Source: a virus
Taxonomy: Duplodnaviria > Heunggongvirae > Uroviricota > Caudoviricetes
IMG/VR virus record: IMGVR_UViG_3300029703_000118
Span: 1-9,464 of that record
Strand: one strand, 5' to 3'
Length of the DNA: 9,464 nucleotides
Each line of letters opens with the position of its first letter. Within the stretch, counting starts at the first letter, position 1. The notes beneath the pieces are model-generated. The model made no database searches. It was not told the DNA's origin and saw only the letters and a list, made by a program, of their open reading frames with translations. The position numbers and the translations under genes were made by a program. This document shows, in pieces, positions 1 to 7,767 of the stretch.

Positions 1-73
1 ATGTTTAATTTACACTCTTTTTATGCAATTATTCTTTCGACTATAAAAACACCACTATCTCATGTATGACCTT

Positions 74-100
74 GGGGAGCGTGCCGTCTCCCCGTTTTTT
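74..100 (+). terminator. Terminator-like hairpin A on the plus strand
   Basis: A 6-bp stem GGGGAG/CTCCCC with an 8-nt loop, then G plus six T. It follows a plus-strand reading frame that enters from the left edge and stops at TGA 67-69. Confidence 0.5.
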
Positions 101-148
101 CGCTTACAGTTTCATGACGACTTTCAGTTTCAGGAATCAGCAGTTACC

Positions 149-175
149 ATGCAATACGAAAATTCTGTATTGCAT
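149..175. promoter_or_regulatory. Perfect 9-bp inverted repeat ATGCAATAC-N9-GTATTGCAT; candidate operator or RNA hairpin
   Basis: Read directly from the sequence: the two arms are exact reverse complements separated by 9 bp (GAAAATTCT). Confidence 0.4.
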
Positions 176-243
176 CCGCGCCCTCATCTCAATATCTTTG
201 TCGCCGGATAAAAATAACTATCAACCACAAGTATCATGCTCTC

Positions 244-269
244 GGGGAGCACGCACTCCCCAGTTTTTT
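244..269 (+). terminator. Terminator-like hairpin B on the plus strand, paralogous to hairpin A
   Basis: A 6-bp stem GGGGAG/CTCCCC with a 6-nt loop, then AG plus six T. Its flanks share short blocks with hairpin A (ATAAAAA, ACTATC, GTAT upstream; CTT..ACAG downstream). Confidence 0.5.
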
Positions 270-372
270 ATCTTTGACAGGGGTGAAGGAGGCCGTTGCA
301 TCTCCTTTAATTATCATTGCCAGATTATTTCCTCGACCTGAGTATTCTTTATTTAGCCATAGCTTTGTAGCA

Positions 373-398
373 AGGGGCTGGAGCGCCCCTCTTTTTTT
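373..398 (+). terminator. Terminator-like hairpin C on the plus strand, abutting the tfa-like stop codon
   Basis: A 6-bp stem AGGGGC/GCCCCT with a 6-nt loop, then C plus seven T (392-398). On the minus strand the hairpin is not followed by a U-tract, so it is oriented to stop transcription entering from the left. Confidence 0.5.
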
Positions 399-979
399 CA
401 CCTGTCAGCCATGCCGACCTTATACGCCAGTATAGCTTCCGCATCATCCAGCGCTTCAATCTCTTTTTTCATCGTGCGCTGTCTGACATGAATTTCCAGA
501 CCTTTGGTAAACATCGCCTGCTCTGCAGCAGCACTCAGAGCAATCAGTGTTTCAGCGTCCATCGGTACGTCATTATTGTCCGCATCCGTCCAGAAAAACT
601 GCTCCGGCAGTTTCCCCGCTTTCGCTGCCGCCACCGACGGCTCAAGACGCGTCTGCGTTGACTTCCCGTAGTCCCATTTACGCCCATTGTGCTCAAACGT
701 GTAGTTCGCCGCTTCCATCGCATTACGCCAGGCGTTGATCCCGGCGGTTTTGAGTTCTCTGGCTTTTTCCGGGCTGATGGATGGCTGTACATATTCTGCA
801 ATTTCACCGGCCTCTCCTCTCAGACAAGCGGCATAAATATCCCGCCCGTATGCTTCGGTATCGCTGGCTGTTGCAGTGAAAGGAACCGCCTGCTCAATGT
901 GCTCAAACTTCACCATGCAATTGACAGCAGTGTGATCTTTATCTGCCCATTGCGGATTGCTTATTTTTTCCACATTCAT
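398..979 (-). CDS. 193-aa protein immediately downstream of the side tail fibre gene; tail-fibre assembly chaperone or tip protein by position only
   Basis: ORF 398..979 on the minus strand with an ATG at 979..977. A Shine-Dalgarno-like AGGAGA lies 5 nt upstream, and the start is 15 nt after the stf stop, consistent with co-expression. The sequence looks like a globular protein. I do not recognise similarity to lambda Tfa, so the function is inferred from position alone. Confidence 0.7.
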   Translation of the reverse strand: MNVEKISNPQWADKDHTAVNCMVKFEHIEQAVPFTATASDTEAYGRDIYAACLRGEAGEIAEYVQPSISPEKARELKTAGINAWRNAMEAANYTFEHNGRKWDYGKSTQTRLEPSVAAAKAGKLPEQFFWTDADNNDVPMDAETLIALSAAAEQAMFTKGLEIHVRQRTMKKEIEALDDAEAILAYKVGMADR

Positions 980-994
980 GTCATCTCCTGTCAG

Positions 995-2548
995 TCAGTA
1001 TGCGCGCTGGAACAGCCCGATGCCTTCATTGTCATTTGTCGACGTAATTTCATTACACACCATCCATGAGCCCGGAACTGAGGATAGTCTGCCGTCAATG
1101 CCATCGGTGTTAGCTTTCATATAGTTCCCGTTTTCGTCTTTGATTAGGGCGCATCGCTTAAGGCGTGAACCCTGTACAGTTTCTCCTGGCTGATAGGTTC
1201 TGCCGATGTCGGTTGCATACGGGATTATTGCGGCAATAATGTATGTTCCGATGCTGTAAATTTCCCCGGGTACCAGCCTTCCGGTTGGCCCTTGTGGTCC
1301 CTGTGGTCCGGGTTCACCTGTCGGGCCCTGTGGACCTGTCGGGCCCTGTCTTCCTGTTTCTCCCTGCAAACCTCGTGGCCCCGTTTTACCCGCAGGACCT
1401 GCCGGACCAACCGGCCCCGGAACACCCTGTGCCCCCGCTGGTCCCCTTTCACCTCGTGGCCCTGCCGGACCTGCCTTACCTTCCGCTCCGGCGGTACCAT
1501 CCTTTCCTGCGGGGCCTGCATCACCTTTGGGACCAGCTGCACCAGCCGGTCCCCGTGGGCCTGCGGGCCCCACTGCACCAGGTGCGCCAGGTTCCCCCCT
1601 GTCCCCCTTCGGTCCGGGGACTGCTGCCCGGGTTGCTGCCTCTTCTGCCTTCGTTTTTGCTGCCTGCACTTCTGCCATTACCGCTTTCACAGCCTTTGGG
1701 GTTGCCGCTTTTGTTTCATCATCGCTGTTGGTATCGCTGCTCAGCTGTACAACACCTTTCTGTGATGTGCTGGCATCCGGAACACTGGCGACACTGCCTG
1801 CGGGACCCGCAGGACCTGCGGGGCCGGTTTCTCCCCGAGGGCCTGCGGGACCTGCCGGACCTGTTGCGCCGGGTTCACCTTTATCCCCTTTCGGGCCGGT
1901 TTGCCCTGCCGGACCCTGTGGTCCGGGTGGTCCGGCCTCTCCACGTGGGCCGGTGTCACCTTTCGGCCCCGGCGGTCCGCCCGGGTCACCTTTATCGCCC
2001 TTCGGTCCCTGTGGACCTGTTTCTCCCCGTTCTCCCTTTGGCCCCGGCTCACCTTTTGGTCCGACCGCCCCCGTTGCCCCGGCTGGTCCCTTTGCCCCTG
2101 TGGCACCCTGTGGACCTGTGTCCCCCTTCTCGCCCGCCGGTCCCCGGGCATTCTCTGCCCGTTTCTTCGCTTCCTCTGCACTCGCCGCCGACGCTTCAGC
2201 ACGCTTCAGGATTTCCGCTGCCACCGCTTCCAGCTCTGCAAGCGCTTTCGGGTAATACTGCGCCTCATCCTGTTCCATCAGAAATTTATTCAGCGTTCCC
2301 GGCTCAGAATCCGCCTTCACCAGAATGTCACCCACATACGACGGGGCGCACCCTTCCGTGTTCAGCGTCACCCGGTACCACCCCGGCTCCACATCAAAAC
2401 TGTAACTGCCGGTTTCCTCCGGCTGCCCCTGCGCCACCGTGGTGACTATCACTGTCTCTGTGGTGCGTCGCGCTTTCAGCTCTATGGTGCATCCCGGCAC
2501 CGGCTTCCCGGTGCCGTCCTTCAGCACGCCCGATATTCTGACTGTCAT
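995..2548 (-). CDS. stf: Side tail fibre protein with collagen-like (Gly-X-Y) repeats, 517 aa
   Basis: The N-terminus [17 protein letters not shown] resembles the lambda Stf N-terminus as I recall it. Two long Gly-X-Y tracts are separated by a linker containing [26 protein letters not shown], which resembles a conserved phage-fibre motif. A GGGAG Shine-Dalgarno lies 7 nt upstream of the ATG at 2548..2546. This architecture matches the prophage-encoded collagen-like tail fibre proteins described in E. coli. Confidence 0.85.
1280..1615 (-). repeat. Collagen-like block 2 inside stf: 38 consecutive Gly-X-Y triplets (aa 312-423)
   Basis: Direct reading of the translated ORF: Gly at every third residue with Pro, Ala, Lys, Glu and Arg at X/Y. 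The DNA is a GGN-CCN triplet repeat. Confidence 0.9.
1796..2143 (-). repeat. Collagen-like block 1 inside stf: Gly-X-Y triplets (aa 136-251) with a single one-residue register break (GDPGGPPG)
   Basis: Direct reading of the translated ORF. Gly periodicity is 3 throughout, apart from one Gly-Gly step at aa 190-191. Confidence 0.9.
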
Positions 2549-2561
2549 AGATTTCTCCCAT

Positions 2562-2595
2562 AAAAAAAAGCCCGCAGCAGTGACGCCACGGGCTT
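2562..2595 (-). terminator. Candidate intrinsic terminator downstream of lom (minus strand)
   Basis: On the minus strand a GC stem (GCCCG...CGGGC, with flanking A-U pairs) is followed directly by a run of 8 U. It sits between the lom stop (2700) and the stf start (2548). Confidence 0.5.
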
Positions 2596-2699
2596 CAGGA
2601 CAGTGTAACTTTACGTTTCCTCAAACGCAGTTCATCACATGAGGCGGATGAACCTGCGAATTATAACAATGTTTGCAGAAGATAAATCGTCATATACTC

Positions 2700-3299
2700 T
2701 CAGAACCGGTATCCGGTGCCGACAATAAACGCCTCCGTACGCCAGTCACCACGTCCTGAGGCTTCATAAGCCAGGTCGACCACGATATTTTCTGTCGGGT
2801 TAATCTGCACGCCTGCACTGTATGTCAGTGCGGTATGGCTGCGGCGTCCGCTGTCCGAACGGGTCAGGTGCTCCTGCTTTTTACCCTCATCTGACGTGAG
2901 GGTCACATAATCACCGGCAAAAGACGACACCCGGGCATACGACACTCCGGCCAGCGCATAAGCGCTGAACCATTCATTCACGCGCACAGATGGCCCCGCC
3001 ATCACGCTGAACCAGCGGTTACGCACAGAATCCTCATGCCAGCGGGTATCGTTGTAGTGCGTTTTTTGCTCACCTTCAGCATTGGCATAACTGAAGGACG
3101 TAATCAGCCCCAGCGTGTCCGTAAACTCATAACGGTATTTCACGTTAATCCCGTTCAGATCATCGCTGCCTGGCATATCAGTATGGGTCTGAAGATACCC
3201 GGCGCTTAGTGTGGACTGATGCTCTGCTGCGCTCGCTGGCGTACCAGCGGCAACCAGCCAGACGACTGCGGACAGAATAACAGCACATAATTTACGCAT
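2700..3299 (-). CDS. lom: Lom-like outer-membrane beta-barrel protein (Ail/Lom/OmpX/PagC family), 199 aa, lysogenic-conversion moron
   Basis: An N-terminal signal peptide (MRKLCAVILSAVVWLVAAGTPASA) and a C-terminus ending in GYRF, typical of outer-membrane beta-barrels. Motifs GINVKYRYE, SVMAGP and DWRT...FIVG match lambda Lom as I recall it. It occupies the lambda position between J and stf. GAGG lies 5 nt upstream of the ATG at 3299..3297. Confidence 0.9.
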   Translation of the reverse strand: MRKLCAVILSAVVWLVAAGTPASAAEHQSTLSAGYLQTHTDMPGSDDLNGINVKYRYEFTDTLGLITSFSYANAEGEQKTHYNDTRWHEDSVRNRWFSVMAGPSVRVNEWFSAYALAGVSYARVSSFAGDYVTLTSDEGKKQEHLTRSDSGRRSHTALTYSAGVQINPTENIVVDLAYEASGRGDWRTEAFIVGTGYRF

Positions 3300-3320
3300 A
3301 ATTACCTCTCGCTTTTCTGC

Positions 3321-3348
3321 AATAAAAAAGGCACCATTTCTGGTGCCC
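3321..3348 (-). terminator. Candidate intrinsic terminator immediately after J (minus strand)
   Basis: On the minus strand a 6-bp stem GGCACC/GGUGCC with a 6-nt loop is followed by UUUUUUAUU. It lies 19 nt after the J stop and 22 nt before the lom start. Confidence 0.6.
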
Positions 3349-3366
3349 GTATCTGGGTTATAAAAT

Positions 3367-6300
3367 TCAGCTAATCGTGATGCCTGCAGTGGCTTTCTTC
3401 ATCACCACAACCAGCAAATCGCTGATACTTGCTGTGGGATACCAGTTATTTACCAGCCATGCTGACACCGAAAACTCCAGTGTCATGTGACCGTGACCGG
3501 CAGGCATATCAATAACGCCACTGTAAATCAGCGTATTATCCAGCGCGGTACGGTTATAAATTTCAGCACCGTTTTTCCGCACTATCAGACGGCATGAGGA
3601 GTAAATATCAGTATGCTCTCTCTCATGCTTAGCGCCACTGAATGCCACCGCCGGAATAACAATCTGTCGGTCAAACGGCTGATCGTCATAAACCCTGACG
3701 GTAATGGTCCCTGATGGCCACCGCTCCGGTGCACGGGAGTCCCGGGGGAAAGCTTTGCCCACTGTTTTAACGAGATCGCCTTCAATCTGGTTCGCGGACA
3801 GTTTTCCCAGAACCCGACAGTTCTCGTTAATCGTGACGTTGTTGAGCGTCCCGGAATTCGCATTCACGTTACCGCTGATATCAGCATTTCTTGCGGTCAG
3901 CCTGCCCTCCGGCGTCAGGGAAAACGTCGGGGGATTGCCGGACGAGGTGATACTCACCGCAAACAGCCGCTTCAGGAACACATCGTTCATGAACAACTGA
4001 TTCCCCTGCGCCACAAATAACGGCGTGGTGTTGCCGTCCTCCGGGTTAATCATCGCAATACGGTCAGCCAGCAGCAGTATGTTGCTCAGGGGCTGGCCAT
4101 CAGTATCCTCAATCCCCGCTCCAATACCGGCAACATAGGGTATGCCATTTTTTGTTTTCTGTACCTTCAGCATGTAAAGTGCAGCAAGGTCATCATTTGT
4201 GTCCTTCTGCACGCGCTGTATCTGCTGTATGGTGGCGCTCTGGTCTTCCAGCGTTTTACTGACCGTCTGCGTGATTTCATTGCGGGTTTCTGTGATGGTG
4301 GTCTGCATTTCCGCCATCTCGTCCTTCAGCTGACTGTTGTCAATCTCTGCCCACAGCGCCTCTGCCAGATGCGTTTTTCCTATCTTTTCCCGGAAAAGTT
4401 CCAGATAGCCCGCAGCATCATTGCTGGGCTGCCCTCTGGCTTCCACAAAAGCAGATTTACCCACCAGGTTGACGCTGCGCACATAAAACCAGAAATCCTT
4501 TCCGGGCTTAATGTGCGGACCGGAGACACTCCACTGACTGCCGGTCCCCAGATAACGGGCAGAGGTTTCCACCTGTGCGGCGTCTGCAATTTTTGCCTCC
4601 GAAAACCAGAACTCAAACTGCACCGTCGGGTCATACACCGCAAGACGCGGTACCGCCGTTATCTGAAAATACCCCGGCGTCAGCTCAATGGTGGCCGGTG
4701 CTGCAGGCGCATTAATCCGGAACGTGGTGGTGGCGGGTTCGCCCTGCTGGCCATAGCTGTTAATCGCCCTGACCGTCAGGGTGTATTCCCCGAGAGGCAG
4801 GCCACTGAAACGGTGCTCCGTATCGGCAGTGATGGCGGTGGTCAGCAGGCGGCTGTTCTCACCGCTTCCACTGGTCAGGCGCAGACTGAAGCGCACGCCC
4901 TTCACCACCCGCGGCGTGTCCCATTTCGCCAGCGCCAGATACTGGCTGTCAGCCGCGCTCACCTCCACCGTCAGGTGCTGTACTGCCGGTGGGATAACGC
5001 TGTTCAGGGTGCCTGACTGCGGCTCAAAGCGGGCTCCGTTATCCACAATGGCTTCTTTTTCCGGTACGTGCTGCACCGCCGTGATGGCAAAGGTGCCGTC
5101 CGTGTTTTCCCGGATGGCCACACAGCGGAACAGGCGACGGCGCAGTGACGGCAGGGAGAGTCCCCACACCCCGTATGTCTCCACACCATCAGGCAGGGTA
5201 CTGACCTGTATCCGGTCCGGCGCGGGGTGTGCGGTAATGTCCACACTCACCGGCTTACCGCTGCCGTTAATCAGGTTCACCGTCGATGTCCCCGTCTCCG
5301 GGAGTGTCACCTCACGGTCCAGCGTCAGGGTGCGGGTGGCAGCATCAATGGACAGGACACGTCCGCCGGTCATAGTCCCGGCATAGTCGTTATCACAGAT
5401 TTCAATGATGTCACCGGGTGTGTGCCGCAGCCCCTGAGACCCGAGCGTGAAATCCACCGTCTGCGTTTCCAGCAGTTCGGTCTTTATCACCCACAGTCCG
5501 GCACGGTGGGCCTGACCGCGGCTGGTACAGCCGAACGCGTCCATCTTCAGCAGGTTGCGTCCGTAGCGCAGTATGGCTTCCGGGTCTTCCACCAGTTCCG
5601 TGGAGGTCTGCCAGCCGTTCTGCGGGTCGGTGTAATTCACCTCCACCGCCGTGTGCCGGTCCTTCAGGGCACTGAAGCTGTAGCGGAATCCCACGCCGTT
5701 ATCATCCACCACATCGCTGTTGGTGTACGGCCACACCACATCCGACGGGCGGTCCTGAACAAACGTCAGCGTCTGACCGTTCCATACCGGCATACAGCGC
5801 ATCGCAGAGCAGAAATCACTGAGAACGTCCCACGCCTTACGCTGTTGTGCCAGGTACGCATTAAAGGTCATCCGCGGCTCGGTCCCCCCGAAACCATCCG
5901 GGACCGTCTGGTCGCAGTACTGCCCGATGGCATACAGCGCCCACTTGTCCACATCCGCCGCCCCCAGACGTTTTCCCATGCCGTAGCGCGGGTGAGTCAG
6001 CATGTCCCACAGGCACCAGGCCGGGTTGTTGCTGTATGCCGGTTTCAGACTGCCGTCCCAGATACCACTGTACGTGCGTTTTTCCGGGTCATAGTTTGAC
6101 GGCACCTGGATGATGCGACCGCGGATATGGTAGTTCACCGTCATCTGCTGACCACCAAACTGCTCCGCATCCACCTGCATCCCCACAATGGCCGTGTTCG
6201 GGTAGCACTGTTTCACATCGATGATTTCGGTGTATGACGACCACAGCGTTCTGTTCTGCAGCTGGTCCGTGGTGCTGTCCGCCGTCTCCCTGACCATCCG

Positions 6301-6837
6301 GATGTTAAAGGGGCGGGGAGGCAGATTATCCAGAATCACCGACGCAAGGAACTGTGAGGTGGTCTTGCCGTTAATGGTGACATCCTTTTCCGTCACCCAG
6401 TTACCGTTACGCTGTAACTGAATCAGCAGACGGACAGAGGACGGATTACGGTCACCCTTTGACGTGGTCTCCACCAGTGACTGCACCCCGAAGGTCACCC
6501 GCAGGCGGTCAATGTTCGCTGACGTAATGGTGCGTGTTACCGGTTTTGCCCTGGTCACTTCGACACCCAGTACAGTTTCAGAGCCGGAGGACTCAAAGCC
6601 TTCCGGTGGTGTCTGCTCCTGCTCCCCGGCACGCCAGACCGCGGTCACACCGTGTATCACGGGATTACCGTCCGTGTCCGTCAGCGGGGTTTTGTTCACC
6701 AGAATACTCTGCAGGCCTTTCACCGGGCCTTCTATCGGTCCCTCACCAATCGCATCAATCACGCTCATCATCTGCGTGGATTTGAGATTATCCTTCACCT
6801 CACGAGGCGTGTGTGCCTTACCGCCACCTTTACCCAC
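3367..6837 (-). CDS. J: Tail tip / host-specificity protein J (central tail fibre), about 1156 aa from a GTG start
   Basis: The ORF is homologous along its length to lambda J as I recall it (for example [63 protein letters not shown] and [18 protein letters not shown]). I place the start at the GTG at 6837..6835, which gives an N-terminus (M)[12 protein letters not shown] matching lambda J MGKGSSKGHTPRE and is preceded by a GGAGAGGGGG Shine-Dalgarno. The TTG at 6882 listed in the ORF track lies inside the upstream terminator. Confidence 0.93.
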
Positions 6838-6878
6838 TCGATCCCCCTCTCCTGTCTGATGTCTGAATTTGTTTATGC

Positions 6879-6911
6879 CCAAAAAACAACAGGCACCCCG
6901 GAGGGTGCCTG
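6879..6911 (-). terminator. Strong intrinsic terminator in the I-J spacer (minus strand), just upstream of the J start
   Basis: On the minus strand a perfect 9-bp stem (CAGGCACCC/GGGTGCCTG) with a 4-nt loop is followed by UUGUUUUUUGG. Confidence 0.7.
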
Positions 6912-6949
6912 CATCATGACGGAATAAAAATTCTGAATATCTTCACATT

Positions 6950-6977
6950 TTCACAAACTGACTGTGGCGCGTATAAT
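6950..6977 (+). promoter_or_regulatory. Candidate sigma70 promoter on the plus strand, convergent with the tail operon
   Basis: A -35 element TTCACA (6950-6955, 5 of 6 matches to TTGACA), a 16-bp spacer, and a perfect -10 TATAAT (6972-6977). The predicted start site is about 6984. Confidence 0.55.
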
Positions 6978-6983
6978 TTCGCT

Positions 6984-7081
6984 GCGTTAGTGTTTTTTCT
7001 GCCCGAGTAACAAAAACAACTCCTTAACATTAATCTTCATTTGTCTGTCCCGCAGCTCCGCGATCACTGCGGGATTTTTTT
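6984..7081 (+). ncRNA. Candidate small RNA of about 100 nt bounded by the plus-strand promoter and terminator in the I-J spacer
   Basis: The predicted start (~6984) and the terminator U-tract end (7081) define a unit with no plus-strand ORF of meaningful length. The body holds a U-rich tract and a CA-rich single-stranded stretch (AACAAAAACAAC) ahead of a terminal hairpin and poly-U, which is the general shape of Hfq-dependent sRNAs. Confidence 0.4.
7048..7081 (+). terminator. Intrinsic terminator on the plus strand
   Basis: An 8-bp stem (UCCCGCAG/CUGCGGGA) with an 11-nt loop is followed by 7 U (7075-7081). On the minus strand the same hairpin is followed by ACAGACAAA, so it terminates only plus-strand transcripts. 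Confidence 0.7.
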
Positions 7082-7086
7082 ATGTT

Positions 7087-7767
7087 TTATCCCTGTCGAC
7101 CAATAACCACGACCTTTCCGCCCCCGCCTTCATCACGGGTACTGATGTCCTGGGATATACGGCGGGAGCCAACCAGCATTTCCCCGTAAGGCACCGGCAT
7201 CGGGTTACCCTGGGCAATCATGTTGTCCAGTGAGGAAAAGTACGTGTTCTGTCTGCCGTTATCCGTTGCGCGGTAATCCGGTGTTTTTGCCTTCGGGGCC
7301 AGCATCTGGGCCACACCACCCAGAATCATGCTGGCTCCAAGTGAAAACAGCATCGTGGTGGCAGAAAAACCACCGGCTGCCAGGGCTGAACCCCATAACG
7401 CCATCGTGGCTCCGGCAGTGAAGAAAGAGCCCACGATGGCCGCCGCCCCCAGCACAATCTGCAGTCCGCCCTTTCCGGCACCGGCCAGTCGCGGCACAAT
7501 ATGGATGACCGTTCCCTCACCCAGTGGTTCGTGAAGGCGGGCATACACCGCCTCCGGTGCCGTGTCATCACCGGCAATACGTATCTGGTACCAGCCTTCG
7601 TTCATCTGACGGCGAAAGCCCGGCACCTGCAGCGACAGGGCACGGATGGCTTCCGCTGCCGTGTTCACATACAGGCTGATGCGGCGACCAAATCGTTGTA
7701 AATCCCCGTGAAGGCAGATGCGGACCAGTGGCGGTGACGCCAGACAGAATGCGTTCGTCGTTGCCAT
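7087..7767 (-). CDS. I: Tail tip assembly protein I, 226 aa
   Basis: Similarity to lambda I as I recall it (ARICL.GDLQRFGRRI, GWYQ.RIAG, IHIVPR.AGA, SLGASM.LGGVAQMLAPKA.TP, DNG.QNTYFSSLDNM.AQGN, YGEM.VGSR). ATG at 7767..7765. It overlaps the 3' end of K by 103 nt in another frame, as in lambda. Confidence 0.92.
   Translation of the reverse strand: MATTNAFCLASPPLVRICLHGDLQRFGRRISLYVNTAAEAIRALSLQVPGFRRQMNEGWYQIRIAGDDTAPEAVYARLHEPLGEGTVIHIVPRLAGAGKGGLQIVLGAAAIVGSFFTAGATMALWGSALAAGGFSATTMLFSLGASMILGGVAQMLAPKAKTPDYRATDNGRQNTYFSSLDNMIAQGNPMPVPYGEMLVGSRRISQDISTRDEGGGGKVVVIGRQG

Follow-up and report, generated by a model that had tools for sequence, protein, structure and literature searches.

The tfa–eib spacer of Eib prophages

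The window considered here is a stretch of 9,464 nucleotides (nt) from a Caudoviricetes virus (IMG/VR record IMGVR_UViG_3300029703_000118), and its first 400 positions hold a series of terminator-like hairpins that lie behind a tfa-like gene and face the tail-fibre genes. This region is the tfa-proximal half of a non-coding spacer of about 0.8 kb that separates tfa from eib in the Eib prophages of Escherichia coli, the eib product being a YadA-type immunoglobulin-binding adhesin. In the reading that we favour, and hold with roughly even confidence, the hairpins are inward-facing intrinsic terminators that stop plus-strand transcription before it enters the late operon antisense. The stack is a real and fairly ordinary boundary feature, and its hairpins are ordinary putative intrinsic terminators. 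The gene and hairpins concerned are:

Positions 398–979, minus strand: tfa-like gene encoding a DUF4376 protein of 193 amino acids (aa), the last late-operon gene in the window (PF14301, E = 3.7e-20; RefSeq annotation).
Positions 74–100, plus strand: hairpin A, with GGGGAG at 74–79, an 8-nt loop, CTCCCC at 88–93, a G and T6 at 95–100; −12.5 kcal/mol.
Positions 244–269, plus strand: hairpin B, with GGGGAG at 244–249, a 6-nt loop, CTCCCC at 256–261, AG and T6 at 264–269; −11.6 kcal/mol.
Positions 284–309, plus strand: hairpin D, formed by TGAAGGAGG and TCTCCTTTA with a T-rich tail; −9.6 to −9.9 kcal/mol, the weakest of the four.
Positions 373–398, plus strand: hairpin C, with AGGGGC at 373–378, a 6-nt loop, GCCCCT at 385–390, a C and T7 at 392–398; −11.6 kcal/mol.

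The left end of the window is AT-rich, as originally described, with a GC content of 39.5% in positions 1–200 and 45% in 201–400 compared with 48–58% in the adjoining tfa gene. The 400-base-pair (bp) region is present in 27 of 5426 complete E. coli genomes, in 70 copies (one to five per genome) of which none is located on a plasmid, and it is matched at 100% in eight complete-genome records. In all examined cases it is flanked by a DUF4376 tfa-like gene and a co-directional gene with a YadA C-terminal domain; Pfam confirms the YadA anchor for the eib-side gene and identifies, next to tfa, genes for Lom and for a tail-fibre protein containing collagen repeats. The spacer matches the orf-191A–eibA region of P-EibA (AF151091) at 93.7% identity over 86% of an 810-bp region, and thus the moron beside it is an eib gene. 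Like the present locus, P-EibA has the same spacer flanked by the tfa-like orf-191A and then by eibA, orf-156A and orf-60A, but it carries a short haplotype without window positions 57–173, that is, without hairpin A and the sequence called box 2 below. In the spacer, AF151091 annotates just one stem-loop, which lies outside the window about 100 bp upstream of eibA, and leaves hairpins A–D and the repeat described below unannotated. The spacer sequence has been public in that record since 2000, and no description of the hairpins or the repeat was found in the searchable literature.

The left flank of the window was deduced from genomes identical or 97.7% identical to it. In the closest genome (97.7% over positions 1–3400) the order is J, lom, tail fibre, tfa, an 807-bp spacer and eib, followed by two small genes, a convergent dinI-like gene and the host gene yecD; a second genome copy has the identical gene order in a prophage ending at btsS. 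The eib gene starts about 410 bp left of the window and the prophage ends about 2.5–2.9 kb left of it. It had been suggested that positions 1–400 are the prophage–host junction or an attachment site. The region is indeed AT-rich, at the window edge and beyond the last structural gene. However, the window stops about 2.5–2.9 kb short of the prophage end, which refutes the idea: in genomes 97.6–97.7% identical over positions 1–3400 the prophage continues for that distance through eib, the orf156-like, orf60-like and dinI-like genes before yecD or btsS is reached. Moreover, the same 400 bp are internal in prophages at different loci and in free phage genomes, and a search of the region for tRNA and tmRNA genes found none. 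The junction reading can practically be dismissed.

The tfa-spacer-eib block occurs also in prophages whose capsid is of the N4-gp56 type and which encode a giant LPD38 protein, and in phage records with E. coli K-12 and E. coli C as stated hosts. Homology to other adhesin loci (70–75% identity) is confined to the ~165 bp immediately upstream of eib, and the remaining spacer, including positions 1–400, is specific to the 27 Eib genomes. A pattern-based scan of species-representative genomes with the Eib protein as query, which gives a weak negative, found no Eib relatives outside E. coli.

Four hairpins facing the late operon

According to the original prediction there are three hairpins, A, B and C, whose GC stems are followed by a T-tract solely on the plus strand and which converge on the tail-fibre genes. 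Sequence and folding confirm their positions and their structure, and all of them lie on the plus strand and face the minus-strand tfa gene; the count of three fell short, since the fourth hairpin, D, was overlooked. In A, B and C a stable GC stem is directly followed by a tract of six or seven T on the plus strand. Judged by thresholds of at least 5 bp for the stem, 3–8 nt for the loop and at least 5–6 residues for the U-tract, we regard them as predicted intrinsic-terminator-like elements. Hairpin D is weaker, having in the terminator consensus scan a stem of nine pairs, two of them G–T, and a tail that is merely T-rich. The final T of T7 in hairpin C is the first base of the complement of the tfa stop codon.

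In the full spacer the scan found five terminator-like sites, all on the plus strand and none on the minus strand, the total of five comparing with 0.8 ± 0.8 in dinucleotide shuffles; positions 1–1500 of the window hold seven plus-strand sites versus 1.8 ± 1.3 in shuffles. Because the minus strand has an A-run before each hairpin and no U-run after it, the hairpins are one-directional. They resemble Rho-independent terminators, including the bidirectional ones of convergent operons, in having stems of 6–9 bp, loops of 6–8 nt and T6–7 within 0–2 nt of the stem, as well as in their position at the 3′ end of an opposite-strand gene. They differ from usual intrinsic terminators in that no plus-strand gene is identifiable, in being one-directional and in that four of them are found within 330 bp. 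By the definition of Juhala et al. (2000, cited in PMC4104026), a moron is a unit of promoter, gene and terminator that has entered a late operon. Behind tfa, the eib block is an insertion of this kind; the spacer terminators lie upstream of eib, face the opposite way and are not the moron's own terminator.

Terminator-like hairpins behind tfa genes

Relatives of tfa were collected from 80 IMG/VR loci, 69 of which have enough downstream DNA to be compared, and the sequences behind them form 20 junction classes, members of different classes sharing less than 80% identity over 90 nt. A terminator-like hairpin on the strand opposite to tfa lies within 100 nt of the tfa stop in 14 of the 20 classes, as against about one in shuffles, with its T-tract usually 5–16 nt from the stop codon or overlapping it. 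In neighbouring 100-nt intervals, either inside tfa or further downstream, opposite-strand terminators occur in only 1–5 classes. Hairpins of the same strand are found in eight classes versus 0.3 in shuffles, six of these being the same hairpin read both ways. From the pattern in 14 of 20 classes it follows that an inward-facing terminator is general at the late operon's distal end, with hairpin C as its representative here. A convergent open reading frame (ORF) ends at the hairpin in some classes, and no convergent ORF of at least 70 aa is present in either Eib type, in class 4 or in the L058 class (18 loci); the L021/L048 class also lacks one, judging from the RefSeq annotation of L021.

In several classes (IMG/VR loci L058, L061, L069, L075, L112 and L065) an ORF of about 100–106 codons recurs antisense to the 3′ third of tfa; its start, at a TTCATG, directly precedes the junction hairpin, and the frame continues across the hairpin. 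This recurrent ORF may be an artefact of codon structure. A proposed homology of hairpin D with another junction class was rejected, only a 9-mer being shared (z = 2.3).

A duplicated unit with a conserved 16-mer

The hairpins A and B belong to two repeat units, of which the following parts are found in the window:

Positions 1–110, plus strand: the 3′ two-thirds of repeat unit 1, which starts about 50 bp left of the window and has its box 1 at −22 to −7.
Positions 125–282, plus strand: repeat unit 2, from box 2 through hairpin B, homologous to about 165 nt at the tfa stop of class 4.
Positions 155–170, no strand assigned: box 2, the exact 16-mer TACGAAAATTCTGTAT in common with unit 1, at the centre of a perfect 9-bp inverted repeat.

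That A and B are paralogous, as originally proposed, is well supported: the blocks within the window align with z = 8.6, and global alignment of the full units (about 171 bp each) gives a score of 68 versus 14.8 ± 5.3 for shuffled sequences (z about 10). The flanks without the hairpin, compared within the window, reach only z = 1.0 and are not significant. A degenerate direct repeat of 65–75 bp had been described, and here the duplication stands but its extent does not, as the unit measures about 172–177 bp and includes the exact 16-mer. The two copies of this 16-mer are 177 bp apart in direct orientation, compared with 169 bp for hairpins A and B, and its one match in the window contrasts with 0.03 expected. 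Judging from the alignments, the units are an old tandem duplication of about 172–177 bp, and all that is still recognisable between them is the 16-mer together with about 45–60 nt around the terminator. The inverted repeat around box 2 pairs 149–157 with 167–175 (−10.2 kcal/mol), and box 1 is without such a repeat.

A clue to the source of the units comes from class 4, whose member phages have a related YadA-like moron. Its junction aligns with the whole of unit 2 at z = 9.0, with the 58-nt 3′ module at z = 6.0 and with the upstream part at z = 3.2; for unit 1 the values are z = 5.4 for the whole and z = 3.9 for the 3′ part. On account of this homology, A and B derive from a junction unit that abutted tfa, was duplicated and is now internal to the spacer.

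A number of other relationships were tried and rejected. Alignment of hairpin C with the A/B unit gives z about 0, which rules it out as a third copy, and the likeness of hairpin B to the terminator of the dinI-like gene (GGGGAGTTAACTTACTCCCC-ATTTTTT) is limited to the hairpin and could be convergence. The 16-mer boxes, taken as possible minus-strand copies of the eib core promoter, show no significant similarity to it (z = 0.2–1.1); neither do they look like an operator or target repeated elsewhere, since a 50-kb Eib phage contains one match with three mismatches, which is at chance level. Crossover sites of the gix/cix type for an invertase do not fit either, the 16-mers being direct repeats 177 bp apart in non-coding DNA with no invertase annotated nearby. 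Further to the left, at 11920–11941 of L001 (about 60–80 bp outside the window), an 11-bp unit ATGACCATTGA occurs once or twice per spacer copy; where it is doubled, the sole −35-like hexamer (TTGAAT) ahead of box 1 arises.

Variation among spacer copies

Twenty spacer copies were compared for sequence variation and for the state of each hairpin. Two segments stand out:

Positions 57–173, no strand assigned: segment absent from the short haplotype of P-EibA, L007, L008, L017 and L018, in which BLAST matches start at 174.
Positions 293–420, no strand assigned: replaced patch in L008, L016 and L038, an allele about 25% diverged.

Besides the deletion form, unit 1 exists in two diverged haplotypes. 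Hairpin A is intact in 8 copies, weakened in 1 (−9.4 kcal/mol), destroyed in 6 and deleted in 5, the destroyed form reading GG--GTCTGTCGTCTCCCC with −2.7 kcal/mol and T5. The deletion of about 113–117 bp, which takes out hairpin A and box 2, is flanked by a 3-bp ATC microhomology. None of the 20 copies lacks hairpins B, D or C, a G>T change weakens B in 4 of them, and at least one box followed by hairpin B on the same strand is retained throughout, the deletion haplotype included. Within the patch, identity falls to 66–78% compared with 96–100% on both sides. The 12 stem bases of hairpin C are unchanged there while its loop grows from 6 to 8 nt and its tail is rewritten; the stem of hairpin D is kept and its energy changes from −9.9 to −16.8 kcal/mol. 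Hairpin A is thus dispensable, and C and D persist through substantial divergence. Because A is degraded or deleted in 11 of the 20 copies, the stack is redundant.

These data bear on the idea that the hairpins are non-functional relics of earlier cargo genes or tfa junctions, which duplication and module exchange have piled up in a neutrally drifting spacer. The spacer does accumulate changes, such as an 11-bp tandem duplication, an 18-nt near-repeat, the deletion of about 113–117 bp and indels of 2–4 bp; hairpin A is disappearing, and 4 of 20 copies have a weakened B. In addition, the junction terminator belongs to a convergent cargo gene in other classes, A and B resemble the tfa junction of another class, and the close relatedness of all copies means that conservation among them tells little about selection. 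The enrichment at unrelated junctions in 14 of 20 classes nevertheless argues for selection on at least hairpin C, the stems of C and D survive in the ~25%-diverged patch, and the exact 16-mer is found between otherwise diverged units. Remnants of a tfa C-terminus were also looked for beside A and B, and by our own reading the minus-strand frames at nearby stops are unlike tfa C-termini. We consider the relic explanation unlikely.

The tfa–eib boundary attracts insertions: in L017 and L019, insertion sequence (IS) elements of the IS21 family and IS1 disrupt or adjoin tfa right by the spacer, and PhiR12_1 also has an IS21-like element at this boundary.

Proposed termination ahead of the tail-fibre genes

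If the hairpins serve as inward-facing terminators, plus-strand RNA polymerase would be released at A, B, D and C before reaching the tail-fibre genes in antisense orientation. Anatomy, strand bias, homologies, genomic context and the pattern behind tfa genes are established by the analysis, whereas both this plus-strand transcription with its termination at the hairpins and the resulting protection of the late operon are inferred. One possible source of the polymerase would be divergent or spurious starts in the AT-rich eib control region (35–39% GC); spurious initiation is generally known from AT-rich, horizontally acquired DNA. Alternatively, in the circular phage, it might come from the early-left/int and SOS-controlled dinI side running in the plus direction, where the dinI-like gene has its own terminator. 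Polymerase of the late operon, moving in the opposite direction, would read through the hairpins into eib because the minus strand offers no U-tract and this polymerase is Q-modified. Hairpin C would represent the local version of the terminator placed behind most tfa genes of the family, and A and B, stemming from the duplication of about 172–177 bp, would make the stack largely historical and redundant, with A being lost. The preservation of the C and D stems in the diverged patch is counted in favour of this terminator reading.

Several observations weigh against it. Phage lambda has no terminator-like hairpin behind tfa, and no plus-strand sigma-70 promoter above chance was found in the region or to the left of it. 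Polymerases modified by N or Q would ignore intrinsic terminators. Furthermore, insulation alone does not explain why an exact 16-mer and 30 nt upstream of the hairpins are conserved, the units around them having otherwise diverged to near-random similarity.

The original prediction had also suggested a terminator stack that insulates the prophage from read-in transcription. A stack is a reasonable description, but insulation from the host is unlikely, because about 2.6 kb antisense to eib and the dinI-like terminator would come first. If the terminator reading is true, the stack is an ordinary boundary element; the more general point would be that, among these lambdoid and related phages, an inward-facing terminator at the last tail-fibre stop usually guards the distal late operon, and that the exchange of cargo (morons) happens beyond this tfa-abutting terminator. 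We regard as modestly new the general inward-facing terminator behind tfa and the possibility of an adhesin-linked pair of small RNAs (sRNAs), which is taken up below.

Coding potential and small RNAs

A plus-strand frame had been reported to enter the window from the left, but this turns out to be only a 22-codon ORF starting at 1–3, with an in-frame TGA just before it, and the other haplotype has another frame open over this DNA. The 20-codon ORF at 149–211, likewise pointed out originally, loses its start and first 8 codons (149–173) in 5 of 20 copies. It could still be argued that the region encodes small proteins, either from the ORFs at 1–69 (22 codons) and 149–211 (20 codons) or from the two plus-strand ORFs of 49 aa called by the annotators of PhiR5_2; the ORFs do exist, and the type II haplotype would encode a hydrophobic 24-aa peptide. 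Haplotypes, however, use different frames over the same DNA, the 149–211 ORF is truncated in the 5 copies just mentioned, the 49-aa ORF crosses hairpin A, Pfam gives no match for the small ORFs of the region, and reading the sequence revealed no convincing ribosome-binding sites. We thus find small proteins very improbable.

The notion that the region holds small RNAs, also raised originally, deserves more weight. The Rfam search of the region returned no family at gathering score and nothing meaningful at E values up to 10. In a position-weight scan for promoters on both strands, the best plus-strand candidates score 7.4 and 7.1 versus a mean shuffle maximum of 8.8, consisting of −10-like hexamers without a −35; hairpins A, B and C and the one of class 4 are each preceded, at a distance of 24–45 nt, by such a −10-like sequence (TATTCT/TATCTT). 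In this alternative the repeat units, and possibly the C unit, would be sRNA genes convergent to the late operon and divergent from eib, each finishing at a terminator of its own, with the 16-mer acting either as a seed near the 5′ end (RNAs of about 115–125 nt) or as a regulator site ahead of a short RNA of about 45–65 nt. The units show a paralogue pattern in which the exact 16-mer and the terminator are kept and the 60–75 nt between them are near-random, and by our own estimate chance would rarely (~1e-3) produce 16 consecutive matches between units that are ~48% identical overall. Also consistent with this alternative are the retention of a box ahead of hairpin B in every copy, the conservation of the 3′ ~60 nt in a distant phage class, and the recurrence of the −10-like hexamer before hairpins A, B and C and that of class 4. 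OmrA and OmrB are tandem sRNA paralogues with a conserved 5′ motif and terminator and a diverged middle; in sequence layout, the repeat units show a similar tandem pattern, with one copy here decaying.

Prophages offer a precedent in the "anti-sRNAs" AgvB and AsxR, which are found at moron sites in convergent orientation (Tree et al., 2014, PMC4104026). Like the repeat units, these are short and non-coding, have a conserved 3′ part with a terminator, are convergent to Q-dependent late transcription, lie beside a moron and exist in paralogous copies. They differ in being located downstream of PR′ by stx-type morons, not behind tfa, and the units show no likeness to them in Rfam. The regulated expression of EibG is in keeping with a riboregulator as well: it responds to static growth, oxygen, pH and temperature, and its promoter and regulator are unmapped (PMC4352079). 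Plasmid complementation of EibG used 168 bp of upstream DNA (PMC13534694).

On the other side, Rfam is silent on the units, no promoter exceeds chance, no −35 is credible and the candidates of the two units are out of register. In the type II haplotype both hairpin A and the −10-like hexamer in front of it are decaying, and 5 of 20 copies have lost box 2. The stability of the folded units does not exceed that of shuffles (z = −0.8 to −1.1), and no second box site was found in the 50-kb Eib phage. Taken as a whole, sRNA genes at this site are a tentative and somewhat doubtful proposition. The wider claim that the units form an undescribed prophage sRNA family travelling with YadA-type adhesin morons and acting in Eib regulation or on host targets is one that we consider improbable; under it the 16-mer would be a seed or control site, and the Eib regulation concerned would be that by static growth, oxygen and temperature.

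Eib adhesins contribute to serum resistance, immunoglobulin binding and chain-like adherence in Shiga toxin-producing E. coli (STEC) and commensal E. coli, and their expression depends strongly on growth conditions. The conserved non-coding stretch of about 640 bp that precedes the core eib promoter, positions 1–400 included, would be an obvious place for Eib control, and if the units are sRNA genes they would constitute a new riboregulator linked to a virulence-associated adhesin.

Other features of the window and of Eib loci

In L001, a perfect 11-bp inverted repeat, GAAATTCCGAA-N16-TTCGGAATTTC, occupies 11694–11731, about 100–140 bp upstream of eib and about 270–310 bp left of the window. 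The predicted eib core promoter, TTGAGT-17-GATAAT, follows downstream, and the repeat belongs to the part of the spacer common to other adhesin loci. In AF151091 a stem-loop is annotated at an equal distance from eibA, and the repeat appears to be its counterpart; we regard the repeat as a candidate regulator site. Further left, about 2.5 kb from the window, L003 has two LexA-box-like sequences CTGT-N8-ACAG at 7416–7470 which overlap the promoter of the dinI-like gene, and thus this gene is probably SOS-controlled. Its terminator is the one whose resemblance to hairpin B was considered above.

The remaining observations concern the tail genes of the window. The tail-fibre protein encoded at 995–2548 has a collagen triple-helix repeat region (PF01391, residues 315–371), and there is a GC-rich stretch of ~72% GC, a feature described for prophage collagen-like proteins of pathogenic E. 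coli (PMC3368898). The lom gene (2700–3299) is bracketed by strong minus-strand terminators at 2567–2596 (13 pairs and T5) and 3329–3348 (8 pairs and T5), which fits a self-contained moron inside the late operon. Between the J-like gene at 3367–6882 and the gene at 7087–7767 is a gap, 6883–7086, in which Rfam finds no family. A strong minus-strand terminator is predicted at 6912–6889 in this gap. On the plus strand, a near-consensus promoter-like site, TTCACA-16-TATAAT (11 of 12 positions), is located at 6950–6977 and is also present in L003, and about 80 nt past it stands a terminator-like hairpin at 7057–7073 followed by ATTTTTTTAT; this could be a unit for an antisense RNA of ~100 nt inside the tail operon.

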